A stretch of 64,000 bases of DNA from Candidatus Thalassarchaeum betae (GCA_003193925.1 PSPG01000004.1:51720-115719), one strand, 5' to 3'. Shown: positions 11,687-63,660, counted from the stretch's first letter. Notes: generated from the letters alone by a model not told the origin. Numbers and translations are program-made.

Positions 11687-11687
11687 T

Positions 11688-13697: not shown

Positions 13698-13710
13698 CGC
13701 GATGTTCTAA

Positions 13711-29877: not shown

Positions 29878-31650
29878 GTGGTCGAAACACCGATATCAAA
29901 GGTGCTGGAAGAAGCCTCTTACAAGGCTAGAGCAGATGATATCCTCGGTGCTGTTGAATTATACCGCAAAGCCACCGAATTGGATGGCTCTAGCGCCTCC
30001 GCCTGGTATGGCCTAGCGGTGATGCAATCCAAGCGTGGAAACACTGCTGATGCAGTCTCCGCGTTCGAGCGGGCACACGATCTAAAACCCGACCATGCAC
30101 CAACCTCCGCTAATCTGGCCGTCTTACTGGAATCGAGGAATCCGGTCAGAGCCGCCAGCTTAGCGAAGTTGGCCCTGAAGACGTTGTCGGATGTCGAGGA
30201 ACTGACTAGGATCGCAGAGAGGCACCCTCCTGAGGAACCGCTGATCTTGCCGGCACGGATTGTAGAAAAGCAGGTGCAAGAAGTGATTCCACATCCACCT
30301 ATGCTCGACTCAAAGCCAGTCGATGAAGAGCCTCTCATGCTGGAAGCGACTCCGGTACTGGCTGACATTGCCGACGTCGCCGAACATGCCGCTGAACTAG
30401 CACGTGAAGGCGAGTTTCAAGAGTCTCTGAATCTAATTCAACCGAGACTGGAAAGTGATGCCTCCGGCAATTCCTCCCTGTGGGCCCTGTGCGGCGTCTG
30501 CCTGTCCCAGTTGGATCATGTCGAAGATGCCATCCAGGCTATCGAATACGCCATTTCCATTGGTGAGGATTCGGCAAAGGCTCACTTCAATCTGGCTCAG
30601 TTACTGAGAAAGTTAGGCCGAAACGATGCCGCAATGCAATCACTCGCTAATGCGCTGTTATCCGACCCTTCGCACATCAACAGTCTAGTTGCGAGAGGGG
30701 AGATTTTCCTAGAGAGGGGAGAAGATGATTTGGCTGTTCAAAATTGGGAGAGGGTCGTTGCAATGGAACCAGAGCATCCGATATCCATTGAGATTGAGAA
30801 TCTCAAACTGTCTGATGATGCAACCGATGACGATAGTGAAGAGGTGGTCAAGGACGAAGTTGAGAAACAATCTGCTGAGTCTGATGAGGATGCACCTATT
30901 CCCTTCGTTGAGACTCGTTCCTTCAAGATTGACAAGGCAAGGGAACTCACAGACTCTGGGGATCACGTCGGTGCTGTGAACGCTTGGAAAGACCTCCTGC
31001 TTGATGACAACAGCTCACCCGAGGTATGGCACGGGCTAGCCGACGCGCTTTCTGTCGCTGGCCACATCGACAGAGCGCACCAGTGCAGACAGAGGGCAAA
31101 TGCAATCGAAGAGGAAACTCAGAACGAAGAGAAGAGAAAGGAGGCCGTATCCGAAGCGGATCTGGTAGAAGCCGCCATTATGGCCGAGGGAAAGGCCAGC
31201 CATCTCCCCCCAAGTGAGGAGGAGAGCGTCAATGTGGCGATCGAATGGTACAACAATGGCCTCAACCTGTTGACCGAGGAGAACAGTCTTGAGGCACTGA
31301 ACTGCTTTGAGAAGGCGATTGGCGGAGCTCCAAGGGAGGAAAGGGAACTGCGTGTTCGCGCCCAGAATGGAAGGGGGCACGCGCTGTACCAATTACGCCG
31401 GTACCCTGAGAGCATACAGGCTTACCATGCTGCGATAACGATGGATCCCGCAGGTGTCACTGGCAGGGCACTGTACAATATGGGATCGTCGTACGCTGCA
31501 GTCGAGTTATACGCCGATGCCATCAAGTGCTTCGAGCAGGCACTAGGAAGGGGTTTGGATACCGAGGATGTAACTATCTGCAAGACTCAAATCAACCGTT
31601 GCAGATTGTTGCACAAGGAGCAGGAGAAACGGCGTAGGGCCACGGCCTAG
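29878..31650 (+). CDS. Tetratricopeptide-repeat protein
   Basis: 590 aa with multiple TPR-like 34-residue repeats (W-LG-Y…A…F…A…P motifs) at both ends and an acidic linker. Confidence 0.7.
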   Translation: MVETPISKVLEEASYKARADDILGAVELYRKATELDGSSASAWYGLAVMQSKRGNTADAVSAFERAHDLKPDHAPTSANLAVLLESRNPVRAASLAKLALKTLSDVEELTRIAERHPPEEPLILPARIVEKQVQEVIPHPPMLDSKPVDEEPLMLEATPVLADIADVAEHAAELAREGEFQESLNLIQPRLESDASGNSSLWALCGVCLSQLDHVEDAIQAIEYAISIGEDSAKAHFNLAQLLRKLGRNDAAMQSLANALLSDPSHINSLVARGEIFLERGEDDLAVQNWERVVAMEPEHPISIEIENLKLSDDATDDDSEEVVKDEVEKQSAESDEDAPIPFVETRSFKIDKARELTDSGDHVGAVNAWKDLLLDDNSSPEVWHGLADALSVAGHIDRAHQCRQRANAIEEETQNEEKRKEAVSEADLVEAAIMAEGKASHLPPSEEESVNVAIEWYNNGLNLLTEENSLEALNCFEKAIGGAPREERELRVRAQNGRGHALYQLRRYPESIQAYHAAITMDPAGVTGRALYNMGSSYAAVELYADAIKCFEQALGRGLDTEDVTICKTQINRCRLLHKEQEKRRRATA

Positions 31651-33929
31651 TCGGAACCTCGTATTGACACAACGACCGATTTGCTGGTCGGTGTATTGCT
31701 GCCTTCGGCCACGCTGTCTAGTGGGACCAGCACATTGGCCTCGGGAAAATAAGTGGCGATGTTGCCCTTTGGAATATCATATGGGACGAGGTACCAATTC
31801 GGTGCATGCCGTTCACTTCCTTCGAAATGAGATGTCAGGTCAACCAAGTCACCTTCGGACCAGCCGTTTTCATCAATGTCAGACTGATTCATCAGAACGA
31901 CTCTCCGGCCCTTGTTGATACCCCTATACCTATCATCCAGACCATACACCGTAGTATTATACTGGTCGTGTGAGCGTATTGTCATCATCAGGAACTGGCC
32001 TGTATCGGCTGTAGCGCCAGAAATGTCGTGAACCCGGAAGTTCGCGTACCCCGTATCGGTGTTGAACGTCCTGCTGTCCCTGGGTGCGTTGGGTAGATAG
32101 AAGCCACCGTCGGACCTAACTCTCTCGTTGTATCCCTCGAATCCCGGGATGCTGGCTTCAATCAGGCCCCTGACCATATCATAGTCCTTTGAGAGGTCCT
32201 GCCAGGCGATCCCACTTCTCCCGATTCTTGTATCCAAAGTACTCGCGATGCCGCAAATGATCGATGGCTCTGACCTCAGGAAAGGAGAGGCTGGCGTGGA
32301 AGAGCCCTTGGACGAGTGAACGATCCCCATGGAGTTCTCGACAGAGACGAACTGCTCGCCACGGTCAGTCAAGTCGGTTTCAGAGCGACCCAGACAAGGC
32401 AGTATCAATGCGGTCCGGCCGGTGATCAAATGTGATCGATTGGGTTTGGTTGAGACCTGAACCGTGAGAGAGCAGTTGCTGAGAGCCGAAGCGGTGGCTT
32501 TCGTATCCGACATCGCAGAGACGAAGTTACCGCCCATCGATAGGAACACCTTGGCAACGCCATCGCGCATCGACTTCACCGCGCGAACTGAATCCACCCC
32601 AGGCTTCGAGGGAGGGATGATGCCGGTGGAGTCGTGCAGGTCCGAGAGGAACTTGTCTGAAGGATTGTGATTGATGCCAACGGTACGATCACCTTGGACA
32701 TTCGAATGTCCGCGGACGGGACAGACACCCGCTCCAGGCCGACCGATGTGCCCCCCCAGCAATAGCAGGTTGGTTATCTCCTGAATAATGGCGACCGAAT
32801 TACGATGCTGAGTCAGGCCCATTGCCCAGCAGACAATTGTGGATTTAGACTTGGAGACGATTGCACCGAGATTGGAGATCACTTCTAGATTGACTCCAGA
32901 GCCCGATATGATAGACCCCCATGAAGTGGACTCCACGGTTCTCCGGTAATCAGCGAATCCACGGGTGTGAGTGGCGATGAATTCCTTGTCCAATGCCTCC
33001 CTCTGCAATACGGTTTTCGCAAGACCCCTGAACAAGGAAAAGTCGCCGTTGACCCTGACGGATATATGCTCGTCTGCAATCGAAGTACCGCTACCCAGCA
33101 GTTCCAGAGGAGCCTGTGGGTGCTTGAAGCGCTTCATGCCGGTTTCAAACAACGGGTTAATGCTGATTACCGAAGCGCCGGCACGCTTGGCGTCCCTCAG
33201 TGCTGTCAGCATTCTAGGGTGATTGGAGCCAGGATTCTGCCCGGCTACGATAATTAAATCGGCCTTGGTGAAGTCATCGAGGGTTACTGTGCCCTTGCTG
33301 ATGCCTATCGAGTCGTGCAAAGCGACGCTGGACGACTCGTGGCACATGTTCGAGCAGTCGGGCAGGTTGTTGGTTCCGAACCTACGGGCCAGCAACTGCC
33401 AGAGGAAGGCGGCCTCGTTGCTGGTCCTGCCCGAAGTGTAGAATATCGCTTGGTCCGGATCTTCTAGGCTTTGCAACTCATCAGATATGACGTCGAATGC
33501 CTCATCCCATGACAGTTTAGCGTAGTAATCGGAGCCCGATCTGAGGATCATAGGATGAGTGAGTCTACCTTGGGAGTTCAGCCACTGGTCTGACTTCCGA
33601 GACAATTCACCTACTGACCACTTGGACCAAAACTCGGGTGATGCCCTCTTTCTGGTGCCCTCGTCCGCGACAGCCTTAGCGCCATTCTCACAGAACTCCG
33701 CAACGGTCCTGTGCCCATCAGGGTCAGGCCACGCGCAACCAGGACAGTCAAAGCCATCGAACCTGTTGACAGAGGTGAAGTTTCTGAAGGACGCCAAGGA
33801 ACCCATTCTGCTGAGACCGTGAGACAGAGTAGAAATAACCGCAGGTATGCCGGCTGCGACTTCCTTCGGTTTGGACAGCCTAGGAGGTGATGGCTCGAGC
33901 GGTGTGAGACCTTCGACGTCCCTCCCCAT
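31647..33929 (-). CDS. Molybdopterin oxidoreductase alpha subunit, FdhF/YdeP-like formate-dehydrogenase-family enzyme
   Basis: 760 aa. An N-terminal Cys cluster (C-x2-C…'CPGCAWPDPD') and molybdopterin-binding domains similar to YdeP/FdhF-type proteins are present. fdhD lies just downstream. Confidence 0.7.
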   Translation of the reverse strand: MGRDVEGLTPLEPSPPRLSKPKEVAAGIPAVISTLSHGLSRMGSLASFRNFTSVNRFDGFDCPGCAWPDPDGHRTVAEFCENGAKAVADEGTRKRASPEFWSKWSVGELSRKSDQWLNSQGRLTHPMILRSGSDYYAKLSWDEAFDVISDELQSLEDPDQAIFYTSGRTSNEAAFLWQLLARRFGTNNLPDCSNMCHESSSVALHDSIGISKGTVTLDDFTKADLIIVAGQNPGSNHPRMLTALRDAKRAGASVISINPLFETGMKRFKHPQAPLELLGSGTSIADEHISVRVNGDFSLFRGLAKTVLQREALDKEFIATHTRGFADYRRTVESTSWGSIISGSGVNLEVISNLGAIVSKSKSTIVCWAMGLTQHRNSVAIIQEITNLLLLGGHIGRPGAGVCPVRGHSNVQGDRTVGINHNPSDKFLSDLHDSTGIIPPSKPGVDSVRAVKSMRDGVAKVFLSMGGNFVSAMSDTKATASALSNCSLTVQVSTKPNRSHLITGRTALILPCLGRSETDLTDRGEQFVSVENSMGIVHSSKGSSTPASPFLRSEPSIICGIASTLDTRIGRSGIAWQDLSKDYDMVRGLIEASIPGFEGYNERVRSDGGFYLPNAPRDSRTFNTDTGYANFRVHDISGATADTGQFLMMTIRSHDQYNTTVYGLDDRYRGINKGRRVVLMNQSDIDENGWSEGDLVDLTSHFEGSERHAPNWYLVPYDIPKGNIATYFPEANVLVPLDSVAEGSNTPTSKSVVVSIRGSD

Positions 33930-33974
33930 GCATCGTCAAAGGTGGTCGTGATACATCAGCGTCACGCAAGACGC

Positions 33975-34790
33975 CTATCCAGAACTGCCGTTGGCCACCC
34001 TTCGATTGCCGCTGAACACGGTCATCCTGTCGTCCCTGGCAAATCCGATTAACGTCATGCCATGCTCGTTTGCTAAATCAACGGCCAGGGTGCTGGGAGC
34101 GCCTACGGCGATGAAAATCGGGAAACCGGCCCTCAGTGCCTTCTGAACCAATTCGAATGAAGCCCTGCCTGAGACGACTACCATCTCATTGCAGATTGGC
34201 AACTGGTCGCTGCCCATGGCAGCTCCGACGAGCTTATCCATGGCGTTGTGGCGTCCGATGTCCTCGGAAATGTCAATGATCCCTCCAGAAGGGCTCACCC
34301 TGGCGCAGGCATGAGTACCGCCTGTGAGTTCGAATATCTTCTGATTGCTCCTGAGTCCGGATATCGCGAGAGAAACCTCGGATTGACCTACTACGATCTC
34401 CTCGCTGAGCGGGGGACCGTGGATGTGCAGGAGAGTGGAAATGGACTCTCTGCCACAGACCCCGCAAGATGAGGTAGTGGTCGTCCTCCTGATGTGTTCG
34501 GAAGGGGCGAATGAAGCACCTTCTGAGAGGTGGATTTCGATCGCGGCTGATGACTCCTCGACTCTCTCGACATCCGACATCGTGTCTATGATGCCCTCTG
34601 AGAGTAGCAGACCGAGCACCAGATTCTCATCCTGCCCCGGAGTTCGCATCGTGAGGCCGAGGGAGTGCGGCTCTGAATCGGGTGCGTGGACAGAGATAGA
34701 GAGAGCGGCTTCCACAGAAACCGCGTCTGGCTCGCGAGTGGTCTTCCCCCCCATTACCCTTGAGACAGGCCTCTGCTCGATGCCGTCCAT
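33975..34790 (-). CDS. fdhD: Formate dehydrogenase accessory sulfurtransferase FdhD
   Basis: 'SCGVCGRESI', 'DIGRHNAMDKLVGA' and the C-terminal 'VVVSGRASFELVQKALRAGFPIFIAVGAPSTLAVDLA' match FdhD. The ORF opens at 35297; I place the start at the Met at 34790, giving 272 aa. Confidence 0.8.
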   Translation of the reverse strand: MDGIEQRPVSRVMGGKTTREPDAVSVEAALSISVHAPDSEPHSLGLTMRTPGQDENLVLGLLLSEGIIDTMSDVERVEESSAAIEIHLSEGASFAPSEHIRRTTTTSSCGVCGRESISTLLHIHGPPLSEEIVVGQSEVSLAISGLRSNQKIFELTGGTHACARVSPSGGIIDISEDIGRHNAMDKLVGAAMGSDQLPICNEMVVVSGRASFELVQKALRAGFPIFIAVGAPSTLAVDLANEHGMTLIGFARDDRMTVFSGNRRVANGSSG

Positions 34791-34880
34791 GTCCCGCGTA
34801 GTGCATCCAGCGTATTGGGTTATGGCTGATGCAGCGAAGAATCTGCAACCGTTCAAATACCACTGCCTGAAGGGCATGGT

Positions 34881-35267
34881 GTGAGCATCCTTGGTGGAGA
34901 CGGTTTCACTCTCCCTATCCTGACTCCGGTCGAGGTCGTGAATGTCGAAATTGAATTCACTGACTCGGCGAAAGCGGCGATGATGAAGAACATGGACGGC
35001 GACGAAGGCTCTCATGTGCTGATTATCAGCGCCCAATCCGGCGGTTGCTCGGGATTCATGTATGACATGGCGATAGCAGATGACCCCGACGATCCCAATT
35101 TCCAGCGCATAGATGCCGATGGGATTACCGTGCTGGTGCACAACAAGGATAGTCCGCTCCTGAATGGCATTCGCGTCGACTTCAAGGACACCCTCATGGG
35201 AGGGGGCTTCCAGATTGACAACCCCAATGCAGACAGGTCCTGCGGATGCGGCCAGTCCTTTGGTTGA
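34881..35267 (+). CDS. A-type Fe-S cluster carrier (IscA/HesB/ErpA family)
   Basis: 'SGGCSGFMY' and the C-terminal 'CGCGQSF' are the three conserved cluster-ligating cysteines of the HesB/IscA family. Confidence 0.75.
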   Translation: MSILGGDGFTLPILTPVEVVNVEIEFTDSAKAAMMKNMDGDEGSHVLIISAQSGGCSGFMYDMAIADDPDDPNFQRIDADGITVLVHNKDSPLLNGIRVDFKDTLMGGGFQIDNPNADRSCGCGQSFG

Positions 35268-35273
35268 GGTCTC

Positions 35274-36188
35274 ATGTCCGGTGAGGGATTTCTCCACCCC
35301 CTAGCAGAGGTGTTCGTGGTACCATCTAGCATCAGCGTGGTAAAGGGAGCGGACGGCTTGGAGCACCTGAATCGGACCTTGACTGCCGACGTTTCAGGAT
35401 TGCGACTGCAAGGGAGGCAGGATGCACTGCTGTGCAATGCAAATGGCAGGATATTGGATCACCTGATTCTGTGCAACCTCGGAGAGCAGGTGATTCTGGT
35501 GGGGAACCATGGTACTGGCGACGAAACTCGTCAACAGTTGCTCCAAGGAGTGGCTTGGGACGAAGAAGTGACTGTCATGAACGCTGACGGAGCGATTGGG
35601 CACCTGAGGCTCCTAGGGAAGGCAGTCGACCGATGCCTAGTGGGATTGGGTATCGACCCGTCAGAAATCGATTCGCAATCTTGGACAGAATTCGGCAGTG
35701 CTCTGATATCTCGGACAGACGTCGGCGATTCAGCGATTACGGAGATCCTCGTCCCCTCAGTAGAGTTGGAATCACTGGTCGAATCACTGGTCGTCAACGG
35801 AGCAAAAACCATGGATTCAGCCAGATGGAGTGAGCTCCGCATCAGATTGGGCATTTTGGAACGCAGTGAGATGAATTCGTCCAACCTCCCCTTCGAACTC
35901 GGTCTGCACGAACTGATCGAACTTGACAAGGGATGCTACCCCGGACAGGAGATTCACGCTAGGATGGAAAGCAGAGGGAGAATCTCGAGGACGCTGGTGC
36001 GGCTTTTCTCCGATCTCCCCCTTCCCATAGGCAAGCACGTGTCCCCTAATGTTGGGAGGATCACTGTAACCTCATACGCCGAACACGAAGGAGGGGTCGT
36101 CGCCCTTGCCATCATACCCAATGAAGCAAGGGAATTGGAGGAACTGGTATTCGAAGATGGTTCCCTGGTGAAGGTGGAACTAATCTGA
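35274..36188 (+). CDS. YgfZ/GcvT-like folate-binding protein (Fe-S cluster assembly/repair factor)
   Basis: 'KGCYPGQE' is the YgfZ-family signature (KGC[YF]xGQE), within an aminomethyltransferase-like fold. It lies immediately downstream of the IscA-like gene. Confidence 0.7.
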   Translation: MSGEGFLHPLAEVFVVPSSISVVKGADGLEHLNRTLTADVSGLRLQGRQDALLCNANGRILDHLILCNLGEQVILVGNHGTGDETRQQLLQGVAWDEEVTVMNADGAIGHLRLLGKAVDRCLVGLGIDPSEIDSQSWTEFGSALISRTDVGDSAITEILVPSVELESLVESLVVNGAKTMDSARWSELRIRLGILERSEMNSSNLPFELGLHELIELDKGCYPGQEIHARMESRGRISRTLVRLFSDLPLPIGKHVSPNVGRITVTSYAEHEGGVVALAIIPNEARELEELVFEDGSLVKVELI

Positions 36189-46434: not shown

Positions 46435-46818
46435 CTATTCCGAGTATTTCGAAGGGCAACCTGTCTGAATCTCATGTGCCTTAAGCAGCCAACCTTCACT
46501 GCTGTCCATCAGGTTTCCCTTGACAGCTATTGTATGGCCCTCTTCGAAACCGTCGGGGATGGCAACCCCAGAGAAGTCAATGTGGAGCGTGTGCGACGTC
46601 CCTGCGAGGTCAAACGAGGATGAGGCGGAATCGAGCGAGCCGGCGACTACTTGACCACGCAGATGCACATTGCCCTCATGTGACTGAGGCGAGGCCATGA
46701 CCTCGTCTACAGAATACTGGGTCTCGGGCTTGACGCTAAGGAACATCAGCGCAACAAGCCCAGCTAGGGCGAGGCCGACTACGATCAGACGCGAAGCCCG
46801 GGTCCCCGCCATGCTCAC
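46435..46818 (-). CDS. ccmE: Cytochrome c maturation heme chaperone CcmE, archaeal-type (CxxxY instead of HxxxY)
   Basis: 127 aa. An N-terminal membrane anchor, an OB-fold region 'VHLRGQVVAGSL…FDL…VKGNL' and the C-terminal 'GCPSKY' correspond to CcmE; the heme-binding His is replaced by Cys as in archaeal-type CcmE. Confidence 0.65.
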   Translation of the reverse strand: MSMAGTRASRLIVVGLALAGLVALMFLSVKPETQYSVDEVMASPQSHEGNVHLRGQVVAGSLDSASSSFDLAGTSHTLHIDFSGVAIPDGFEEGHTIAVKGNLMDSSEGWLLKAHEIQTGCPSKYSE

Positions 46819-46857: not shown

Positions 46858-47991
46858 TCAGCGATTGCCATAGCCAACTACCTCTTCGATGCTCAGGAAA
46901 CCGTTGTCCCTCATCCTCCTGCTGAGTCCCTTGACTATGAGAGACACTACGGACGGGCCCTTGAACACCATAGCCGAGTACAACTGCAACAGAGATGCTC
47001 CCGATGTCATCGCCTCCCAAGCAGAGTCCGCCGAGTCGATCCCACCGACTCCGATTATCGGTACCTCGGAGCCGGCCTCCTCGTAGAGGAGTCTAATCAC
47101 TTCGGCCGAACGCGATTGGAGTGGCCTTCCGGAGAGGCCCCCACGCTCGGCGAAGACGCTCCGCGACTTGGTATTGGAGGGAACGGGGCGGTGGAGGGTC
47201 GTGTTGGTGGCGACGAAACCGTCGATACCCCGCCTCATCGCCATTTGGGCTGATGCGAGCAGCTCGTCGTCCGTGCTATCTGGGGACAGTTTCAGCAACA
47301 GAGGTTTTCCCCCACCCCTCCTCTCACTGATTCTGCCGCACTCGGATAGAATCGAGGACAAGTGGTCGACCTCCTGCAGCTCCCTTAGGTCGGGGGTATT
47401 CGGTGAAGAGACATTGAGGACGAACATGTCAGCGTGATTCCACAGGATGTCCAATGTCTGCGAGTAGTCGCTGGGTGCGCTCTCGTTCGGGGTCTTCGTG
47501 GAACGGCCTATGTTGGCCGCGATGGGAACCTTGGGCCACTTGCCCGAAGCCCGGCGAGAAATCAGCCTGTCCCTCACAGCCGAGGCTCCGGGATTGTTGA
47601 AACCCATCCGATTCACCAAAGCGTGCTCCGACTCGGCCCTGAACATCCGGGGTTTGGGGTTGCCATCTTGGGGAAATCTGGTCACTCCGCCGTACTCGAC
47701 CCATGAGAAGCCCAACGCTGGCCATGCAGAAAGCGCCTCTGCACCCTTGTCAAAGCCTGCTGCCAACCCCAATGGATGGTGAAAAAGGCGTCCAAGAACG
47801 TGAATTGGCAGTTCTGGGGCGTGATACATGGCACTGAGAGCTCGCTGGCCACCCGAACTCTGTCCGAATGACGACAGCCCCTGAATGACGAGGTCATGAG
47901 CCTTCTCGGAGTCGGCGAAGCGAAGGATTGGTCGCACGAAGAAGGAATACGGTAATCCCATTGCTGCAGCCTGCCGAACGATATTCTTCAA
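46858..47991 (-). CDS. pyrD: Dihydroorotate dehydrogenase (quinone), class 2
   Basis: 377 aa. An N-terminal membrane-association segment, the FMN-binding TIM barrel ('GLSNPGA'-type motifs as 'GFNNPGA', catalytic Ser region) and 'IIGVGGI' are present. Confidence 0.85.
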   Translation of the reverse strand: MKNIVRQAAAMGLPYSFFVRPILRFADSEKAHDLVIQGLSSFGQSSGGQRALSAMYHAPELPIHVLGRLFHHPLGLAAGFDKGAEALSAWPALGFSWVEYGGVTRFPQDGNPKPRMFRAESEHALVNRMGFNNPGASAVRDRLISRRASGKWPKVPIAANIGRSTKTPNESAPSDYSQTLDILWNHADMFVLNVSSPNTPDLRELQEVDHLSSILSECGRISERRGGGKPLLLKLSPDSTDDELLASAQMAMRRGIDGFVATNTTLHRPVPSNTKSRSVFAERGGLSGRPLQSRSAEVIRLLYEEAGSEVPIIGVGGIDSADSAWEAMTSGASLLQLYSAMVFKGPSVVSLIVKGLSRRMRDNGFLSIEEVVGYGNR

Positions 47992-54359: not shown

Positions 54360-55773
54360 TGAGTGCTTCTATTTCATCAATTGTCTTCGGACAATCCGAG
54401 GTCAGCACTACTGGACCGCCCTCGGTGATGAGTACGTCATCCTCTATACGCACCCCTATTCCGGAGTACCTCTCGGGAATCTCGACGTCCGTCCTCCAAC
54501 TGCCGAAGTATAATCCCGGCTCGACGGTTAGGACCATGCCGGGCCCGAGGTCGCGCCCGGGCCCATCATCGCCTTGTCGGCCACCTCCGACATCGTGGAC
54601 ATCAAGTCCCAGCAAGTGCCCCGTACCGTGCATGAAGTAGTTCCTGTAGGGTCCGTCGAAGTCCTCCCCCAGAGCATCCTCTAGTGAGTAGTCTAGGATG
54701 CCGAGGTCAATCAATCCCTGAGCGAGTACGTTAGAAGTCGCATGGTGCATCGCGCTCCACGGTGAGCCTGCTTGGCATGCCTCAATTCCAGCCATTTGCG
54801 CCCTGAGGACGAGTTCGTAAATCTCTCGCTGTGCATCACTGAACCGCCCGTTCACCGGCCAGGTTCTCGTAATGTCGGATGCATATCCCTCGACCTCTGA
54901 TCCGGCATCGACAAGGACGAGATCGCCGCCGGCGATAACAGCATTATTGGCATTGTAGTGGAGGATTGTGGCGTTATCACCGCCGCCAACTATTGTTGGG
55001 TAACTCCAACGGCTCTTGCTCGCGGTGAAATGTCTCTCGATGACGGCTTGTACCTGCCACTCTCCAATATCAGCATAAGCCGCTCGCATCGTCGCAACAT
55101 GGGCCGCAGAGGCGATGTCTGCCGACTCCTGCATCAACTGGATCTCTCGATCGGACTTGCGTACCCGCATCTCATCGAGTATCGAGGATGGGTCAGAAAG
55201 GCTCGTCGGGCCGATGTACTTGGTGTTGCTGTCACGCGACTTGGAGTTCACTGCGCTGTTCACCATCTCATCCAATATCGGATTGAGGCCTGGGATTAGG
55301 TGAATCTGCTTGCAAGCCTCGAAGTGCTCTGCTACCGTTTTCTCCAGATCTTCCAGAGAATGAGCCTCATCGATGGGCCACCCGGAGGCAGCGCCCTCTG
55401 TGCCAACCCTTCGACCCTCCCATATCTCGGTCTTGGTGTCTCGAGGTTGGACGAATAGCGAGGTCGTCCACGCGCCTGAGTCGTAATGAGACATCAGAAC
55501 GGCTCCGGGCTCATTCCACCCACACAGATAGAGCATGTACGAACTGGCACGAAACGGGTAATGGACGTCATTGGAGCGATTCGCGTGGGGATTGGTGGGA
55601 ATCAGCACCAAGCTGTCGGACGGAATCTGCCCTAGGAATTCAGACTGGCGCCCGCGATACTCGGCCTCGGAGAATGCAAGCTCAGCCATACGTCTCGCCG
55701 GGCTGTCGACTAGAGGCCCGTTCTTAGGGGTGTGGGAAGTCGAAGACGTCAGTTTTCGTTGCCGGACTTCCAT
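54343..55773 (-). CDS. pepP: Xaa-Pro aminopeptidase (M24B family)
   Basis: 'HGTGHLLGLDVHDVGG' and the upstream metal-ligand residues form the pita-bread fold. An N-terminal creatinase-like domain is present. Confidence 0.85.
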   Translation of the reverse strand: MEVRQRKLTSSTSHTPKNGPLVDSPARRMAELAFSEAEYRGRQSEFLGQIPSDSLVLIPTNPHANRSNDVHYPFRASSYMLYLCGWNEPGAVLMSHYDSGAWTTSLFVQPRDTKTEIWEGRRVGTEGAASGWPIDEAHSLEDLEKTVAEHFEACKQIHLIPGLNPILDEMVNSAVNSKSRDSNTKYIGPTSLSDPSSILDEMRVRKSDREIQLMQESADIASAAHVATMRAAYADIGEWQVQAVIERHFTASKSRWSYPTIVGGGDNATILHYNANNAVIAGGDLVLVDAGSEVEGYASDITRTWPVNGRFSDAQREIYELVLRAQMAGIEACQAGSPWSAMHHATSNVLAQGLIDLGILDYSLEDALGEDFDGPYRNYFMHGTGHLLGLDVHDVGGGRQGDDGPGRDLGPGMVLTVEPGLYFGSWRTDVEIPERYSGIGVRIEDDVLITEGGPVVLTSDCPKTIDEIEALIGSDR

Positions 55774-57311
55774 TTCGGAATGGACGCGGAATCGTCCGAA
55801 GAACGGTACCTCAGCAATATGGCCGAGACCATGAAGATGGCTGAAATCGCAAGGGCGATTAGCGGGTAGGGCAGGGGCTCGCTCACGTCGGGGTTGACCA
55901 ATTGTACAGAGACGGTGCCGTACTCATCATCATCGTCGATGACGTCCAAAGTGAGAATTAGTTCGTCTCCGGCGCCCGAAGGCCAGGAAAGAGTTCTCTG
56001 GCAGCCCTCATACATTGGAGCGTAATCAATCTTCCAAACGCACCTCAACCCGGCTTGATCGTTAGCTGAGTCGACCGAGGCGGAAGCGTCCAAAGCCCAT
56101 TCGCCGCCTGGGCTCAACTTGATGCTGTCACCATCTGAGACAGGACTGCCATCCACATACATCTTGGCCGTGGGTATGACGTTCTCCACAGTGAATGTCT
56201 TGACTGATGTGCTTGAAACCCCACCGGCGTCCATCACGCGCAGAGTCAGAGTGTATTCGCCGGAGGTCTCGCTGCCCATAGAGTAAGTGCCGAGGCCGTC
56301 CCCCATGACGATGTCGAGCGGTGTCGAACCAGTGTGTGAGGGCCTTCTCAGCACCCACATGTAATGCATGTCCTCCCTGCCCCATACCGGGTCGTTGGAG
56401 GCACTGCCGTCGAACAACAGATCGCCACTGCCCTCCAGCACGCTGTCTGGCCCCGCCAGTGTGATTGCCGGAGCAAGATTGTTGACCCGGATGGGCACGC
56501 AGGTCTGAGCGAAGGTAACCCCGGAGGGATCGTAGTTCTCGGCGTAGAAGGAGTGCCATCCATCATAGAGCCCCGAAATGTCGATCCTGTTCGAGAAAGA
56601 GCCATCTGGAATAATCACCAATAGATGTGAACTGAAATCGGAATCGGCCTCGATCATGCACACATCTGCCGCGTTGGAAGCCGACTTCGCGAAGAATCGG
56701 AGCTCCGGAGAAGTCCATACCATAGGGTGCGAACTCCAGCCTGAAGCGGTGAGTGAGTTGGAAACCCAATCCCCCGAGGCCGGAGAGTGGAGCATGATTG
56801 CTGACTTAGCCGTATCTCCGAGGAACAAAACTTGTCGGGCCTGCGATGTCTCCCCGGAAGCGGACTCCACTGTGACTGTGAGGTAGCAGGTGCATGGGGA
56901 GTACTCTGCCACATCGAGTTCCAGCGACCAGATCCAGATGGGCCTTGAACCCGATGAGTCGGCTTCCTCCAAAGTCGTCGACAGATCCCCGCTGCCGAGC
57001 TCTGCCTCCTCGCCAATGCTCCATGTCACGTGAGGGGGCCTCTCTTCGTCCTCGACGAAACCTGTGATTACAGTAGTTTCGTTCGTGGTGAAGCCATTCT
57101 CGAAATCGAATCCGATGAGAGGAACATCGTCGGAATCCTCCGCGCTGACAGGGGTAAGAGTGGGGGACCACGCCGCTATAAGCAGCAAGACGACGAACAA
57201 CCTAGGGGACTTCACAGCGTATGGCCGGACCAATTCCGTAATGAATCTCATGCCTAAATGATGATTGTTCCAATCATCTGTCTGAAATCTGTAATTGCCA
57301 CGCCAGCTCAT
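55749..57311 (-). CDS. Hypothetical cell-surface protein (signal peptide, beta-rich PKD/Ig-like repeats, C-terminal TM anchor)
   Basis: 520 aa with an N-terminal hydrophobic signal, repetitive beta-strand-like segments and a C-terminal 'PLIALAISAIFMVSAILL' anchor followed by a charged tail. Confidence 0.5.
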   Translation of the reverse strand: MSWRGNYRFQTDDWNNHHLGMRFITELVRPYAVKSPRLFVVLLLIAAWSPTLTPVSAEDSDDVPLIGFDFENGFTTNETTVITGFVEDEERPPHVTWSIGEEAELGSGDLSTTLEEADSSGSRPIWIWSLELDVAEYSPCTCYLTVTVESASGETSQARQVLFLGDTAKSAIMLHSPASGDWVSNSLTASGWSSHPMVWTSPELRFFAKSASNAADVCMIEADSDFSSHLLVIIPDGSFSNRIDISGLYDGWHSFYAENYDPSGVTFAQTCVPIRVNNLAPAITLAGPDSVLEGSGDLLFDGSASNDPVWGREDMHYMWVLRRPSHTGSTPLDIVMGDGLGTYSMGSETSGEYTLTLRVMDAGGVSSTSVKTFTVENVIPTAKMYVDGSPVSDGDSIKLSPGGEWALDASASVDSANDQAGLRCVWKIDYAPMYEGCQRTLSWPSGAGDELILTLDVIDDDDEYGTVSVQLVNPDVSEPLPYPLIALAISAIFMVSAILLRYRSSDDSASIPKWKSGNEN

Positions 57312-58332
57312 CCAGCCAAATGCCTAGAGTGGTACGGTTGACGAACTCATGGCTGGCCTCGGCAGACAGCACGCATTCGCAGGCTGCGGCGGCCAGAGTG
57401 GCAGCATCGGCCATAGAATGTCCGTTGCCAAGCGCGGCCGCCAGAGCGGTGGCGGCTGCGTCGTGGAGGCCAATCTGCTGAAGAGGGGCGTCAGTGGAGC
57501 AAGGCAGGTGCATCGGCTCGCCATCCGCTTGGTAGAGAGTGACTCCGTGGACGCCGCCAAGCACTAGCATGGCCCCCCAGTCGTAAGTTTTGATCAGGCT
57601 CCTGGCAGCCTCTGCTTGGTCCGATGCAGTCAACCGGCGGCGAAGCAGGTCGAGTCCTCGAATCTCGAACAAGACGGCGTCGGCCCCCCTGCTCCTGTCG
57701 AGTCCGGTCAACTTGGGATCCATTATCACCGGAACGCCCGCACCGCTGGCCACCTTAATGAGAGATTGCGCACCATCTGTGGTCAGAACCCCCCTATCAT
57801 AGTCGGAGAGCACGATGGCGCAGCTGTCCGATAGGGAAGACAGTGCCGAGGCCGTCAACGAAGCACTGACGCCTTCAGGTAGATCGTCACGTGGGCCACG
57901 GTCGGCCTGCAGGAGAATCTGACTCTTGTCCAGAAGGCTCTCGCGGCTCCCATAGAAGCGAATCTTGGTCAGAGTGCTCCGGCCTGGGACGATATCTATC
58001 CCAGATGTCCCTATGCCATCTGCAGACAGCTTCTCGATGATGACCCGGCCCTCCCTGTCGTCTCCGACGCAGCAGTGAAGGCTTACGGAAAGGCCGAGGG
58101 AATTGAGCCCCATCGCGATGTGCGCGGCAGCACCGGGTGTCTCCTCGGAACTCAGAATCTTGAGCACTGGGACGGGGGCTGTCGAATCCAAGTTGTTGGC
58201 AAATCCGTGATGGTACCTGTCCAGCATGACGTCACCGATCAGCGTGACCTTAGAGGAACCCATGCTCTCAAGCAGAGACCTGAGTCTCTTGAGAGCCTCA
58301 GCGCGCTCATGAACGTCGCCTTCGTCGGTCAT
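57274..58332 (-). CDS. PfkB-family carbohydrate kinase, HldE/RfaE domain-I-like (heptose-7-phosphate kinase-like)
   Basis: 'VTLIGDVMLDRYHHG' resembles HldE 'VGDVMLDRYWYG'. A ribokinase-fold GG motif and the C-terminal 'DVTGAGD'-like region (DAAATALAAA) are present. Confidence 0.65.
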   Translation of the reverse strand: MTDEGDVHERAEALKRLRSLLESMGSSKVTLIGDVMLDRYHHGFANNLDSTAPVPVLKILSSEETPGAAAHIAMGLNSLGLSVSLHCCVGDDREGRVIIEKLSADGIGTSGIDIVPGRSTLTKIRFYGSRESLLDKSQILLQADRGPRDDLPEGVSASLTASALSSLSDSCAIVLSDYDRGVLTTDGAQSLIKVASGAGVPVIMDPKLTGLDRSRGADAVLFEIRGLDLLRRRLTASDQAEAARSLIKTYDWGAMLVLGGVHGVTLYQADGEPMHLPCSTDAPLQQIGLHDAAATALAAALGNGHSMADAATLAAAACECVLSAEASHEFVNRTTLGIWLDELAWQLQISDR

Positions 58333-59434: not shown

Positions 59435-61420
59435 CTATTCGGACGGAGGCGGTTTGAGAACGTCTGTTCGTCCGCCGCCCGCTATCGAAATTGCGACAAG
59501 CACGGAAATGACCAGCAGGCCATTTGATGGCTGTGCTAGCCAAGCCAGCCAGCCATCCCCCGAGAACGGCGATTCAGCCTCGAGGAGCAACGGGATGCGC
59601 TGCTCTATGCCGCTGCTGTCTAACAAGACGAGTTCCCCGCGAGCGAGCATCCCCGGCTCGAGCAACCCTGCTGGATCTATGTCGAGAGTTATCGAGTCGC
59701 CTGCGGACAAGGTTCCTTGCGTGGCGGCCGTGGCGATTCTCTCGGCAGCTCCTTCCACAGCTATCGAGTAGGTGCGCTCACCATCCCCCTCGTATTCAGG
59801 GGTGACTTGGACGGTGGAGGGAGAGTCCCAAGCGACGATGATCTCGAGCTGTGAGGTGGAAAGGCGATGGCCGACTCGGAACCAATCGAGGTCTATGTCC
59901 GTCAGAGCCTCGCCCTCGCATCCTATGGTGCCTCGCAGGTTGCCATGATCGCTGGGGCCGTCCGGGCTATACAGAATCACTATCTCGTACTCGCCTGAGG
60001 GAATCTCAATGTAATCGGGCTGAATCTGCCCTCCGCTCTGCGTCCACGATAGCGACACCTCCAATGTACATGGCTGAGAGGCTGTCACCTGAGCGTAGGA
60101 TGACTCACCCGGAATGAGTTGGATGGGGTTGTGGGGAGTCAGGACATCGACGCTTGACTGCCCCGAGGGCTGGATGGCCACAGTGGCACTGTCATCACCC
60201 AATGACTCGACTGTAGCAGTCCACTGAACCATTCTACCGCGGTTGTCCCGGATAATCATCCCACTATCTCCGAAAACTCCCCCCTCTGAGAACACGTCCC
60301 CTGGACTGCCGGTGTCCCTGCCTCTCTCGAGGGCTGCATCACCGTCGGCCTCGATGATCTTCACCCAAGCAGTGTCGGGGTCTGTGTTGACGAGGTTATC
60401 GAAGGAATTTCCGTTGTTCTCGTCCTGATGCTCGACTAGTATCCCGTGTCCCGGAAGGGCGGCATCGAACCCGGCATCCCCACGGAAGGTGACCCACAGG
60501 GTCTCTCCGGGAGCGAGTTCGATCGATAGGGGCCGACCACCGGCAGAAATCGGTGACATCTCAAAACTGCCCCCGACGAGGGGGTCGACTGCGGTGGAAC
60601 GGTGAGCGCCTATCAGTTCGAGAGTGGCCGAACCGGGCAAAGCGGGAATGTTTCCGTTGCCGTTCCAGTTGCCGCTGGCCATTATGTCCCAGTCGCCCAG
60701 TCCGTTCCAATTGGAGGATGGCAGAACGCTGTGCACGTCGTAGAGGTCGAGCGCTCCCATCTGGTGGAGCATCTCGTGGACCACCGTACCGATGCCCGAG
60801 TCCAAAGATGCAATGGTGTAATGGTTCACCGACCAGTCATCGAAGGACAGAGGCTCATCCAGCCAAGACATGTGGCTCCAGAGTGTATTGGCACCTCCTC
60901 CGGTCTCCTGAGCCCTTCCTGAATGGAGGATCAGCAGCCTGTCTATCGCACCGTCCCCGTTGAAGTCCCACTTGGAGAGGTCTTGGCCCTCCAGCATCGC
61001 CTTGCAGGCCTCCTCGACGAGTGCGGTAGCTCCTATGTCACGCTCGTCGGAGCTGTCCGCACCCCAATGCCCCTCTGATTGGGGCGCGGTCCACACGTCA
61101 CCGTACATGGTGACCATGAGGGTAGATGCTCCGCCGCTCATCTGCTCGATGTAGCTAGTCGCTGAGCCCTCGCCTAAGAGGATCGATTCAGCCTTGTTCT
61201 GGGAAAACGCCCTGTCAGGGAACTGGACCATGAGAACCAACCACTGCTCATCGCTCTGCAACTCAACCAGATCGAACGATTCGTCCGTCGGTTCGGCTAT
61301 CTCAGCCTCTATCCAATCGTCTATCACATCCGGATTGAGATTGGCCCAGACGCCCATCATCAGCACGGCTGCTACGATGGCTGCGCGTGCCGCGTTCATG
61401 GACCCACGTCCATGAATCAC
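59435..61420 (-). CDS. Secreted/membrane-anchored zinc metallopeptidase, M6 (immune inhibitor A)-like
   Basis: 661 aa with an N-terminal signal/TM and a C-terminal TM anchor. 'VHEMLHQMGALDLYD' resembles the M6 motif HEXXHxxGxxDxY. Confidence 0.6.
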   Translation of the reverse strand: MIHGRGSMNAARAAIVAAVLMMGVWANLNPDVIDDWIEAEIAEPTDESFDLVELQSDEQWLVLMVQFPDRAFSQNKAESILLGEGSATSYIEQMSGGASTLMVTMYGDVWTAPQSEGHWGADSSDERDIGATALVEEACKAMLEGQDLSKWDFNGDGAIDRLLILHSGRAQETGGGANTLWSHMSWLDEPLSFDDWSVNHYTIASLDSGIGTVVHEMLHQMGALDLYDVHSVLPSSNWNGLGDWDIMASGNWNGNGNIPALPGSATLELIGAHRSTAVDPLVGGSFEMSPISAGGRPLSIELAPGETLWVTFRGDAGFDAALPGHGILVEHQDENNGNSFDNLVNTDPDTAWVKIIEADGDAALERGRDTGSPGDVFSEGGVFGDSGMIIRDNRGRMVQWTATVESLGDDSATVAIQPSGQSSVDVLTPHNPIQLIPGESSYAQVTASQPCTLEVSLSWTQSGGQIQPDYIEIPSGEYEIVILYSPDGPSDHGNLRGTIGCEGEALTDIDLDWFRVGHRLSTSQLEIIVAWDSPSTVQVTPEYEGDGERTYSIAVEGAAERIATAATQGTLSAGDSITLDIDPAGLLEPGMLARGELVLLDSSGIEQRIPLLLEAESPFSGDGWLAWLAQPSNGLLVISVLVAISIAGGGRTDVLKPPPSE

Positions 61421-61424
61421 TCTT

Positions 61425-62642
61425 TCAATCCAATGCCGACAAGATTGGCTGATGCATCAAATCGCGGATGGAAGAGGCACGCCATGCCTCGTCAGAAGAT
61501 TCTGGAGCGTCCAGCCAGCCCAATCCGCCATATTCGCAGCCCATGGAATCAAGCGAGGACCTGAGAGATGGAGGGAGGGGAGTCGCGTCGCATCCTGCGA
61601 TGATAACATCCGAGAGTCTCTGATGCAGGACCAAGTCGGCCAACGCATCCTGCTCCGTCGGCTCTAGACAGAGGGCCGAGCACCTGGGCGCGGCCACGCC
61701 CTCGTGAACGGTGCCTGATGGAAATCGTGGGCAAGCACCCTCGCAACCGCAGTCGATGAAGGCGACCCTGTGCACAGAGCCATCCGAGGCGATCATGTCC
61801 TCGACATCGAACCTCCTGCGACCGAGCGGGGCTTCTGGCAAGGTGCGGGAGATTGCGTCAGCCACCGCCATGGATATGGCGGCGACTAGCAGCCTCAGGC
61901 CCTCGTACTCGACTGGGAGAGTGAGCAGCAAGAGTCCTCCGAAGATCAGCAGTATACGCACCCTGAGCCTCGCCTCACCGTGCTCCACGAGACCCAGCAA
62001 GCGAGCCATAGACAGAGAGAGGGTGGCGAGCATGACGGTTACGAGTAGCCAGGAGAACCCCAGAGCCAGTCTGAACAGAGCGCTGGCGTCGTATCTGGCT
62101 CCAACCCCCTCCAGAGCGTCAGCAGCCTCAGTTGCCTCGATGAACAGGGGAAGCAGGTAACCCCATGTCGCTAGGATCACCGCCGGGACCATGACCATAC
62201 TCAGGCAAAGCAGGACTGAGAGCCAAGTGCGCTCACGGGGAAGCAGCCCTGGACGAGCGAATCGCTGCAACTGGAAAGACAGTACCGGCATCACAGTTAG
62301 GAGGGCGAGTAAGATGGCCAAGGACCAGCGTATCTCCAACCACTCGAAGGGAGAGTACACAGACAGGTCGAGCGAGGCGGCGCCCAATGGAAGCGAGTTC
62401 AGCCACGCTCGCATCAGCGAGTCGGTGCCATACGCCCATGCGATTGCTGCGATGGCAATCAGTATGGCGGATTTGCGTATTGAGCGATGCAACTCAGACA
62501 GATGCTCGGACAAGGGCCTACGCCTGTCGGAGGATACTGCGAGTGTCATATCAGAGGATGTCCTTGACCTGTGGCTCAGCTCTGGCTGCCAACACCGTCC
62601 TGTAGACGCCGTAAGCCGCCCAGACGCTGATGAAGAAGGCAC
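61425..62642 (-). CDS. tatC: Sec-independent translocase TatC with a ~150-aa cysteine-rich C-terminal cytoplasmic extension
   Basis: 'PLSEHLSELHRSIRKSAILIAIAAIAWAY' is the TatC N-terminal signature and six TM helices follow. The C-terminal tail contains 'IDCGCEGACPRFPSG…CSALC…AGCDATP…MGCEYGG'. The start is probably the Met at 62549. Confidence 0.7.
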   Translation of the reverse strand: MPSSSASGRLTASTGRCWQPELSHRSRTSSDMTLAVSSDRRRPLSEHLSELHRSIRKSAILIAIAAIAWAYGTDSLMRAWLNSLPLGAASLDLSVYSPFEWLEIRWSLAILLALLTVMPVLSFQLQRFARPGLLPRERTWLSVLLCLSMVMVPAVILATWGYLLPLFIEATEAADALEGVGARYDASALFRLALGFSWLLVTVMLATLSLSMARLLGLVEHGEARLRVRILLIFGGLLLLTLPVEYEGLRLLVAAISMAVADAISRTLPEAPLGRRRFDVEDMIASDGSVHRVAFIDCGCEGACPRFPSGTVHEGVAAPRCSALCLEPTEQDALADLVLHQRLSDVIIAGCDATPLPPSLRSSLDSMGCEYGGLGWLDAPESSDEAWRASSIRDLMHQPILSALD

Positions 62643-63660
62643 AACCGATTGCGAACCCGGTAATGTCGGAGGTCCTAGTCCCCTCCTCGACGATAGTGGC
62701 CGGAGGGAATGCTATGGAAACATCGGAGGCCATCCAGCGGACCCCGATGGCGAATGCTGCAATGCAGAGCAAGCCTCTTCGGATGGCCTGGGGATAAGCA
62801 AGTTCGTTTGCCAGGAACTCAGGACCGTCGTCGTAGCGTCGGTCGAGGATCTCCTTCTGCACCACAGCTCCGACTATCAGAGCCACAAGACTGGTCCAGT
62901 ATAGCAGGTTGCCCTGCTCGAATATCCTCAGTGACAGCGCCGCTTGGCGGTCTGCCTCCTTCTGGGCGTCGGACTCCTCGATCAAGAACAGGGTGTCGTA
63001 GTCACCTACGGAGATGGTCCTAGTTTCGAGTGTTGCCGCATCGTCACCGGAAACTATGGATCCGGGCGGGCTGACAGTGAATGAGAGTAGGTTCCAGTAG
63101 TCGTTCTCGTCAGGCACCCCGGAGCCGTCAACTGAGTTGCCTGCCAACCAAAAGTTAACTCCGCCGACATCTTCAGCGGGCGCGGTCCAGTTCAGGAACC
63201 AGATGCCATCGGAGTCGATGCCGGACTGCGATATGTCATCAAGGGCATCATCTACCTCGCGAATGTCCTGATCATTGGCCCAAGTAAAGACCCCCATGCC
63301 CTCCGAAGAGAGAAGGAAACCTGCCTTTGTGTTGCCACTGCCGCCCGAAAGCGTCAGCGAGTCTGCAACGGTGATGGTGTACTGATAAGTCTCGTCGAGC
63401 CCATACATCACAGGGATGCCGGTGATCATTACCACCGATCTGTCCGAAGGGGCGCCGTTGTTGTGACAGGTGCAACCATACTTGACAGTCGGATCTCCGT
63501 TGTTGTTCTCGACAGGCGGTCCACCGGACATTGCCATGACGGGCAGGGCTAGCAATCCCAGCAGCACCAGGCAGATGGCCGCTTTATCCACAATCGACCG
63601 CATCATGTCACCCGTACCTCTGTCAGATGCCGGAGTCTCATAACCGTTGCTCGGTCGCAT
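62551..63660 (-). CDS. Hypothetical secreted protein with C-terminal TM helices
   Basis: 369 aa. An N-terminal signal-like hydrophobic segment is followed by a beta-rich extracytoplasmic domain containing 'KYGCTCHNNG' and then 2-3 TM helices. It lies directly upstream of tatC on the same strand. Confidence 0.5.
   Translation of the reverse strand: MRPSNGYETPASDRGTGDMMRSIVDKAAICLVLLGLLALPVMAMSGGPPVENNNGDPTVKYGCTCHNNGAPSDRSVVMITGIPVMYGLDETYQYTITVADSLTLSGGSGNTKAGFLLSSEGMGVFTWANDQDIREVDDALDDISQSGIDSDGIWFLNWTAPAEDVGGVNFWLAGNSVDGSGVPDENDYWNLLSFTVSPPGSIVSGDDAATLETRTISVGDYDTLFLIEESDAQKEADRQAALSLRIFEQGNLLYWTSLVALIVGAVVQKEILDRRYDDGPEFLANELAYPQAIRRGLLCIAAFAIGVRWMASDVSIAFPPATIVEEGTRTSDITGFAIGCAFFISVWAAYGVYRTVLAARAEPQVKDIL

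Follow-up and report, generated by a model that had tools for sequence, protein, structure and literature searches.

A divergent TatC of Marine Group II archaea with a conserved, HdrA-like four-cysteine C-terminal domain as a putative Fe-S-binding module

Introduction

TatC is the core receptor of the pathway for twin-arginine translocation (Tat), a universal export route for folded and often cofactor-bearing proteins, and how Tat senses cofactor loading is a long-standing question. A 64-kb stretch of DNA from Candidatus Thalassarchaeum betae (GCA_003193925.1 PSPG01000004.1:51720-115719; the whole stretch is referred to here as the window) encodes a TatC-family protein with a cysteine-containing C-terminal extension, between the genes of a surface protein and a metalloprotease. 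The locus thus raises the question of whether this extension is a real domain, what it is related to, and what it might do on a translocase receptor. We hold with moderate confidence that the Poseidoniales (Marine Group II, MGII) possess a TatC with a cytoplasmic, lineage-specific, HdrA-like four-cysteine domain that acts as an iron-sulfur (Fe-S)-binding accessory module. We found no description in the literature of a TatC fused to a cysteine-rich or Fe-S domain, or of Tat in MGII, and the fusion is apparently a real, conserved and undescribed TatC variant. Among archaea of the surface ocean, it is conserved throughout one of the most abundant orders and has been naturally deleted in a few lineages, and a TatC carrying its own Fe-S-type domain would represent a natural experiment on cofactor sensing.

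Gene layout and reality of the fusion

The three genes are referred to as A, B and C in order of transcription:

62551-63660, minus strand: gene A, open reading frame (ORF) of 369 amino acids, surface protein.
61425-62642, minus strand: ORF of gene B; the ATG at 62549 is the start that fits all homologues and gives a protein of 374 amino acids.
59435-61420, minus strand: gene C, 661 amino acids from a GTG, or 654 amino acids from the ATG at 61399.

An earlier note on this DNA, made from the sequence alone, had described three packed co-directional genes on the minus strand, and the junctions, read directly, agree with it. The stop codon of A (TGA, 62553-62551) is separated by 1 nucleotide from the ATG of B at 62549, and the stop codon of B (TGA, 61427-61425) lies 4 nucleotides before the GTG at 61420. 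The latter spacer becomes 25 nucleotides if gene C starts at the ATG at 61399 (MNAARAA...), which is where its homologues begin, and not at the GTG.

The extension of B follows the sixth transmembrane (TM) helix and runs from about residue 236 to residue 374. The earlier note had proposed a search for the same fusion in relatives, and this search was productive: the 34 close homologues of B are all about 370 amino acids long, and a continuous ORF joining TatC to the C-terminal domain (CTD) was found in 63 of 68 species-level genomes as well as in many metagenomes. The locus survey used one genome per species and returned 65 loci, all from metagenome-assembled genomes of Marine Group II/Poseidoniales except for one evidently misbinned contig; the nearest surveyed locus is from Ca. 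Thalassarchaeum betae, at 79% identity. The exception (L020, PBPC01000068.1) is labelled 'Gemmatimonadetes bacterium RS373', carries a complete MGII block (pntB, A, tatC-CTD, M6, endA, pfkB) at 53-94% identity, and is almost certainly a misbinned archaeal contig. In most loci, identity within the CTD equals or exceeds that within the TatC core. The cysteine-bearing extension that the note described on TatC is a real domain, as conserved as the core.

An exhaustive HMMER search of 1.84e9 cluster representatives with a CTD profile gave 68 hits. The full-length hits are TatC proteins of 340-456 amino acids with the domain at about residues 245-360, and two hits in proteins of about 1,700 amino acids were dismissed as low-complexity noise. 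The candidates for stand-alone CTD genes that were looked up, P0155 and P0200, start 25-44 nucleotides from contig ends and prove to be contig-end fragments. From these searches, the CTD appears to occur only as a TatC fusion and to be specific to Poseidoniales.

The earlier note named what would overturn its reading, namely a C-terminal region that is a frameshifted separate gene (sequencing error) or a common, uninformative linker. We weighed the corresponding artefact, a distinct gene fused on through a frameshift or faulty assembly, or a linker without structure. Short CTD-only database proteins such as P0155 and P0200 could speak for such an artefact, but these are the two entries that begin at contig ends, the same continuous ORF recurs in 63 independent species-level assemblies and many metagenomes, and the CTD is modelled as a folded domain (see below). 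Neither form of the objection holds, and we consider the chance of an artefact to be negligible.

The divergent TatC core of gene B

The TatC core of B and its residues of interest are located as follows:

61845-62549, minus strand: TatC core of B, residues 1-235, six TM helices.
62493-62504 (H16/E19) and 62232-62234 (E106), minus strand: signal-peptide-binding residues of B.

The identification of gene B as a TatC was confirmed by a match to Pfam TatC (PF00902) over residues 15-200, at 59 bits against a cut-off of 25.1; distant members of the family score 38-66 bits with the same model. An AlphaFold2 (AF2) model of B shows the six long helices of the TatC fold (predicted local distance difference test, pLDDT, 77). 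Aligning the family profile with Escherichia coli TatC over 218 columns places E. coli H12/E15/F94/E103 on H16/E19/F97/E106 of B. Across 68 genomes, E106, P67 and W70 are invariant, H16 is present in 67 of 68 and an acidic residue (E/D) at position 19 in 57 of 68. The aligned acidic residues recognise the twin-arginine (RR) motif in model systems. By this alignment and conservation, together with scores that fall short of the equivalog models (given below), gene B is a divergent TatC that retains the residues of twin-arginine recognition. Given six helices and an N-in topology, the CTD would be on the cytoplasmic side of the membrane, and a basic RRRF stretch after TM6 supports this placement.

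The more distant members of the family (L010 1932-3230; P0159, P0161, P0168, P0169, P0192 and others; likely MGIIa) are 430-456 amino acids long. They carry about 80 additional residues after the cysteine domain, with a conserved 'DPW' and a C-terminal 'LPWG...P.E' and no family match, and a conserved cysteine pair in the first extracellular TatC loop (LSPC...C).

Fold and cysteines of the C-terminal domain

The segments of the extension are:

61470-61814, minus strand: CTD of B, supported by AF2, Foldseek, hhalign and cysteine invariance.
61749-61751 (C267), 61743-61745 (C269), 61731-61733 (C273), 61668-61670 (C294) and 61590-61592 (C320), minus strand: cysteine codons of B.
61425-61469, minus strand: C-terminal tail of B, residues 361-374 and stop, with low model confidence and variable sequence.

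AlphaFold modelling, as the earlier note had advised, yielded a folded domain. CTD residues 246-360, modelled from a 35-sequence alignment, reached a pLDDT of 92.4 and a predicted TM-score of 0.82, and in the model of B residues 370-374 fall below a pLDDT of 50. The modelled order of elements is strand, long loop, helix, strand, helix, strand, helix, which corresponds to a minimal Rossmann-like alpha/beta domain. The extension contains the stretch CGCEGAC at residues 267-273, as had been noticed, and seven cysteines (267, 269, 273, 290, 294, 320 and 338) where at least eight had been claimed; the eighth cysteine of the protein, C115, is in TM3. In 37 clusters at <50% identity, the conservation of C267, C269, C294 and C320 is 100/100/97/100%, and it is 100% wherever the CTD is present (63 genomes). 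C273 is conserved in MGIIb only, and C290 and C338 are variable. The idea that the cysteines form a metal or Fe-S set thus stands for the four invariant residues, which match cysteines of the HdrA N-terminal domain, and not for the full number, as only four (five in MGIIb) of the seven are conserved. In the AF2 model, two of the invariant cysteines form a CxC that follows strand 1, the third caps the N-terminus of helix 1 and the fourth belongs to a GC that follows strand 2; all four are at the C-terminal edge of the beta-sheet, which is the usual ligand site of such folds.

Resemblance to the HdrA N-terminal domain

The six best Foldseek matches of the CTD are all HdrA chains (5odi, 5odc, 5odh, 7bkd, 8rvy, 8rvu) from four organisms, with E values of 2e-3 to 1e-2, probabilities of 0.99-1.0 and TM-scores normalised to the query of 0.50-0.64; all other matches have query TM-scores of <=0.47. 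We then compared profiles using HdrA N-terminal sequences taken from the PDB. Over 79 columns at 23% identity, hhalign aligned the CTD with the HdrA N-domain (E 3.5e-4, probability 37%), pairing C267, C269, C294 and C320 with C11, C13, C46 and C71 of 5odc_A, which are invariant in both families. The alignment score of 27.2 exceeds those of all 200 column shuffles (11.2 +/- 2.4, maximum 24.6). The corresponding motifs (HdrA/CTD) are IGVYVCHCG/VAFIDCGCEG, MCADPGQEMI/LCLEPTEQDAL and VVVAACSP/VIIAGCDATP. There was no match between the CTD and HdrA at the HMMER level, and a sequence and profile search of the PDB with the CTD gave nothing relevant. Pfam and NCBIfam found only TatC in B, with none of the FAD-binding thioredoxin-reductase-like or ferredoxin domains of HdrA, and the polypeptide extends about 14 residues past the CTD. 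From these comparisons we conclude that the CTD is probably a trimmed domain of the HdrA N-domain type, with remote homology.

The MvhD/FlpD family (PF02662; 5ODC chain D) was also considered. MvhD/FlpD is the [2Fe-2S] subunit of F420-non-reducing hydrogenase, and it was a candidate because it likewise has a cysteine after strand 1, a cysteine before a helix and a GC after the next strand. Membership was rejected: there was no Pfam match at E values up to 10, and hhalign against genuine MvhD sequences gave 8.5%. MvhD/FlpD is at most a distant fold relative of the CTD.

Putative metal site, role and natural loss of the domain

In HdrA, the N-terminal domain (residues 1-135) holds a [4Fe-4S] cluster (PMC9012536; PMC13518236). 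By analogy, the CTD most likely binds an Fe-S cluster, and zinc (Zn) is less likely; a metal or Fe-S site in the extension, as suggested earlier, is the best reading of four invariant cysteines that align with those of the HdrA [4Fe-4S] domain. Such a cluster would sit just beneath the cytoplasmic signal-binding face of TatC. As an accessory module, the CTD could act as a cluster- or redox-dependent regulator, or as a docking site that would couple receptor activity or assembly to the cofactor or redox state of the cell.

Five lineages provide a view of the TatC without the domain. In L060, L062, L064, L066 and L069 (at ~6000-6760), the CTD is absent and TatC stops 10-25 residues after TM6. 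The ORF of the TatC core is intact there, as are both neighbours, and the synteny is unchanged. Comparison of L062 with its CTD-bearing relative L032 reveals a clean deletion of about 290 nucleotides. The CTD is dispensable in some lineages, where the TatC core functions, or is at any rate kept, in its absence. Since five lineages lost the CTD and kept the core, the domain is likely accessory and outside the transport mechanism itself, and these lineages are useful natural controls for its function.

Several points weigh against this interpretation. The TatC assignment is that of a distant relative, as B is below the NCBIfam TatC equivalog cut-offs for both the bacterial (TIGR00945, 47.4 versus 132.7) and archaeal (TIGR01912, 37.4 versus 192.6) models. 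Two regular-expression scans and a hidden Markov model built from five TatA sequences did not reveal any tatA-like gene, either in the window or across 0.9 Mb of related loci, although the genomes may still have tatA, and no ORF with an RR signal was found in the window. With neither tatA near the locus nor an RR-signal protein in the window, it is an assumption that B operates within a canonical Tat system and that these genomes have no other TatC. The clustering of the four cysteines is predicted from the topology of the model, and Zn could be bound just as well by a Cys4 site on a fold of this kind. In HdrA the cluster is ligated by N-domain cysteines together with Cys/Sec197 of a partner subunit (PMC9012536; PMC13518236). 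Because the partner provides one ligand, the HdrA ligand set is not simply transferable to the CTD. A regulatory role of the CTD is conjectural, and the redox-sensing or cofactor-handling translocase proposed in the earlier note is likewise a hypothesis.

The flanking proteins A and C

The features of A and C discussed here are:

63463-63480, minus strand: Y-G-C-x-C-H of A, residues 61-66, close to where the mature extracellular domain begins.
62596-62916, minus strand: C-terminal 3-TM membrane domain of A, from conservation and hydropathy.
62776-62781, minus strand: R294-R295 of A (PQxxRR), before TM2.
60746-60778, minus strand: zinc motif HEMLHQMGALD of C.
59471-59539, minus strand: C-terminal TM anchor of C, from hydropathy.

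Protein A matches NCBIfam NF041895 (choice_anch_V) at 67.4 bits against a cut-off of 42 over residues 34-193, and has no Pfam match; its 279 homologues are named choice-of-anchor V in Ca. Thalassarchaeum/Thalassarchaeaceae. Hydropathy shows four hydrophobic segments. A is accordingly predicted to begin with an N-terminal Sec-type signal or anchor, to expose a choice-of-anchor V domain outside the cell and to end in a 3-TM anchor. A PDB profile search with A found nothing. An A homologue (L070 5002-5976) has a weak sub-threshold Pfam Reeler match (E 0.038, 15 bits), which raises the possibility that choice-of-anchor V is a Reeler-like beta-sandwich of prokaryotes. In the 3-TM domain, the cytoplasmic motifs E270, R274, P280, P290, R294-R295 and the tail YGVYRT are 97-100% conserved in 63 genomes. 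R294-R295 directly precede the moderately hydrophobic, N-in/C-out TM2 and are 97-98% conserved (61-62 of 63 genomes). After this RR and TM2 there is only a loop of <=24 amino acids (absent in some genomes) and TM3, and no folded domain. A was also tried as a TatA/TatB analogue and rejected, with an hhalign probability of 0.9%.

The GCTCH of A, pointed out in the earlier note, is at residues 62-66, and its G62, C63, C65 and H66 are identical in 60 of 60 aligned genomes. The note had connected it with c-type heme and with the ccmE in the window, and we therefore considered whether A is c-type-cytochrome-like, with a CTCH that receives heme from a Ccm system and a TatC fusion that handles this cofactor protein. 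In favour of this, GCxCH is invariant and the window does contain a ccmE-like gene that bears the archaeal CPSKY motif (46435-46800, minus strand; Pfam CcmE 48 bits, archaeal CxxxY variant motif TGCPSKY), adjoining dihydroorotate dehydrogenase (46858-47991). The motif is C-T-C-H in all 60 genomes, with one residue between the cysteines and hence not CxxCH, so A was rejected as a c-type cytochrome; in the known substrates of heme lyases, 2, 3, 4 or 15 residues separate the cysteines. The ccmE-like gene is 13 kb off in an unrelated neighbourhood, and the window showed neither further ccm genes nor a CxxCH protein. Since the attachment of heme c takes place outside the membrane, on apoproteins exported by Sec, a connection with Tat would not be expected, and A has no conserved RR signal. 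The only usage of a 'CXCH motif' found in the literature was for Rieske box II; a Rieske motif consists of box I (CxHxGC) and box II (CxCH) (PMC4122944). A has box II only and was rejected as a Rieske [2Fe-2S] protein; no cysteine or histidine occurs in the ~17 mature residues upstream of its CxCH, and it has no other conserved cysteine. The chance that A is a heme-bearing partner of this kind is very slight.

Protein C matches Peptidase_M6 (PF05547, 53.1 versus 22 bits) and TIGR03296 (114.6 versus a cut-off of 110.8 bits), and its HExxHxxGxxD is kept in 61-62 of 62 genomes. The description of C as a large M6-like surface metallopeptidase was correct, and C is predicted to be a membrane-anchored M6-family (InhA-like) zinc metalloprotease. 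Also as described earlier, the N-termini of A and C have no twin-arginine motif that is conserved among orthologues, which have K, R, KR and only occasionally RR. In the absence of a conserved RR in their N-terminal signals, A and C are likely Sec-type proteins and not Tat cargo.

Conservation of the gene trio

A is upstream of tatC in 71 of 75 loci and M6 downstream in 70 of 75, with the misses mostly at contig ends. The distance from A to tatC is <= ~30 nucleotides in all loci, and M6 follows within ~40-450 nucleotides. The linkage persists at 20-33% TatC identity (L007, L010, L011, L070-L075) and in loci with other outer surroundings (L008, L045-L057), and the module of a choice-of-anchor V/GCxCH protein, TatC-CTD and M6 protease is conserved, while annotation labels its parts piecemeal. 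The wider region is also largely syntenic, with pntAB upstream and endA and a pfkB-like kinase gene downstream, and linkage alone is for this reason weak evidence of function. The tRNA-splicing endonuclease encoded nearby indicates that the DNA is archaeal. The M6 gene is truncated in two populations (L003 9128-10189, L034 7116-8138), and in L050 (7085-10488) a CBS/DUF21-like gene and methionyl-tRNA synthetase are found in its place; the protease is therefore not strictly tied to tatC.

Alternative explanations for the domain and the locus

A structural Zn(Cys)4 domain would require no redox role: the CTD could stabilise or oligomerise TatC, for example by standing in for part of what TatB does as a scaffold, and convergence or a remnant would account for its likeness to HdrA. 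By TM-score, Fe-S-binding HdrA chains make up all of the best fold matches, and the alignment of all four cysteines with the HdrA N-domain scores above 200 of 200 shuffles, both of which argue against this reading, and we regard it as unlikely. A further proposal is that a built-in redox-active [4Fe-4S] domain borrowed from HdrA gates or tunes export by Fe-S, oxygen or redox status, maybe in a stable complex with A, whose internal twin-arginine hairpin could be docked in the signal-binding site of TatC. If true, the gating domain would amount to cofactor 'proofreading' hard-wired into the receptor, a task left to separate chaperones in other organisms; we consider this quite unlikely as it stands.

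The trio could also be a dedicated membrane complex and not part of general Tat, in which a TatC-like receptor permanently binds A through its RR and TM2 hairpin as a signal mimic, an idea to which we give only a small chance. In the same improbable scheme, the receptor may organise the anchored M6 protease as well, and the CTD would serve the complex. The tight A-tatC spacing (1 nucleotide here), the survival of the trio through changes in flanking synteny (L008, L010, L045-L057), the invariant RR-binding E106 of TatC and the lack of tatA near the locus are consistent with such a complex, as are the near-invariant cytoplasmic loops of A and its conserved R294-R295 in the N-in/C-out orientation of a Tat signal. 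The positive-inside rule, however, already predicts basic residues at cytoplasmic TM ends, TM2 of A is followed by no folded domain, unlike in known dual Sec/Tat proteins, and the membrane domain of A lacks homology to TatA/B. The broad synteny of the region in this order means that the linkage is maybe inherited gene order, the M6 gene is truncated or replaced in three loci, and the CTD-less lineages keep A and M6 unchanged. An Fe-S-binding accessory module on a divergent TatC is thus the reading that we retain.

Other features of the window

A molybdopterin oxidoreductase (760 amino acids, 31647-33929) is followed by an FdhD/NarQ-family protein (window positions 31647-35297, minus strand). 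The oxidoreductase was considered as Tat cargo and rejected: it has no twin-arginine signal and is therefore presumably cytoplasmic. A histidine-utilisation block on the plus strand (10006-15270) encodes formiminotransferase (10006-11067), cyclodeaminase (11060-11686), urocanase (11688-13697) and histidine ammonia-lyase (13711-15270), which fits the protein- and amino-acid-scavenging lifestyle of MGII. On the minus strand at 55749-57311, a very acidic surface protein of 520 amino acids has a sub-threshold PKD match and a C-terminal TM anchor; 38 nucleotides of its ORF are shared with the end of the pfkB-like kinase gene (57274-58332), and it is poorly conserved among genomes (25-79%).

Comparison with known systems

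Compared with immune inhibitor A (InhA) and peptidase family M6, protein C shares the catalytic-domain models and the HExxHxxGxxD motif, while it is archaeal, has a C-terminal TM anchor and shows linkage to tatC in almost all of the examined genomes. Protein A resembles dual Sec/Tat-integrated proteins, such as the actinobacterial Rieske protein and others, in having RR before an internal N-in/C-out helix. Tooke et al. 2017 (PMC5449189) place a globular cofactor-containing domain after the Tat-dependent helix of such proteins; A differs from them in having a short loop and a third helix after its RR helix.

Relative to characterised TatC proteins (E. coli; Aquifex aeolicus 4B4A/4HTS; Myxococcus xanthus 9E03), B is very divergent, and none of the TatC structures matched has a folded four-cysteine cytoplasmic C-terminal domain of ~115 amino acids. 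Unlike known TatC genes, B has no adjoining tatA or tatB and sits between two genes for Sec-type surface proteins. The haloarchaeal TatC variant TatCt/TatC2, with 14 TM helices, is a tandem duplication of the membrane domain. Both variants are archaeal, lineage-specific elaborations of TatC, and in the protein described here a soluble domain with a cysteine cluster was added instead.

The closest comparison for the CTD is the N-terminal [4Fe-4S] domain of HdrA (5ODC/5ODH chain A residues 1-135, cluster 'A3'). The order of elements is the same, and common to both are a CxC(G) after strand 1, a cysteine at a helix N-cap and an (A/G)C after the next strand, with a spacing of CxC-24-C-25-C in the CTD versus CxC-32-C-24-C in HdrA. 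The CTD is trimmed in that a loop takes the place of the helix-strand unit between CxC and the third cysteine. It is carried by a membrane translocase subunit, whereas the HdrA N-domain is part of a flavoprotein, and unlike HdrA it has no FAD (flavin adenine dinucleotide) domain, ferredoxin domain or HdrBC partner, in a host that is an aerobic heterotroph. The TatC-CTD of Poseidoniales would extend the known range of this HdrA domain to a setting outside flavin-based electron bifurcation.

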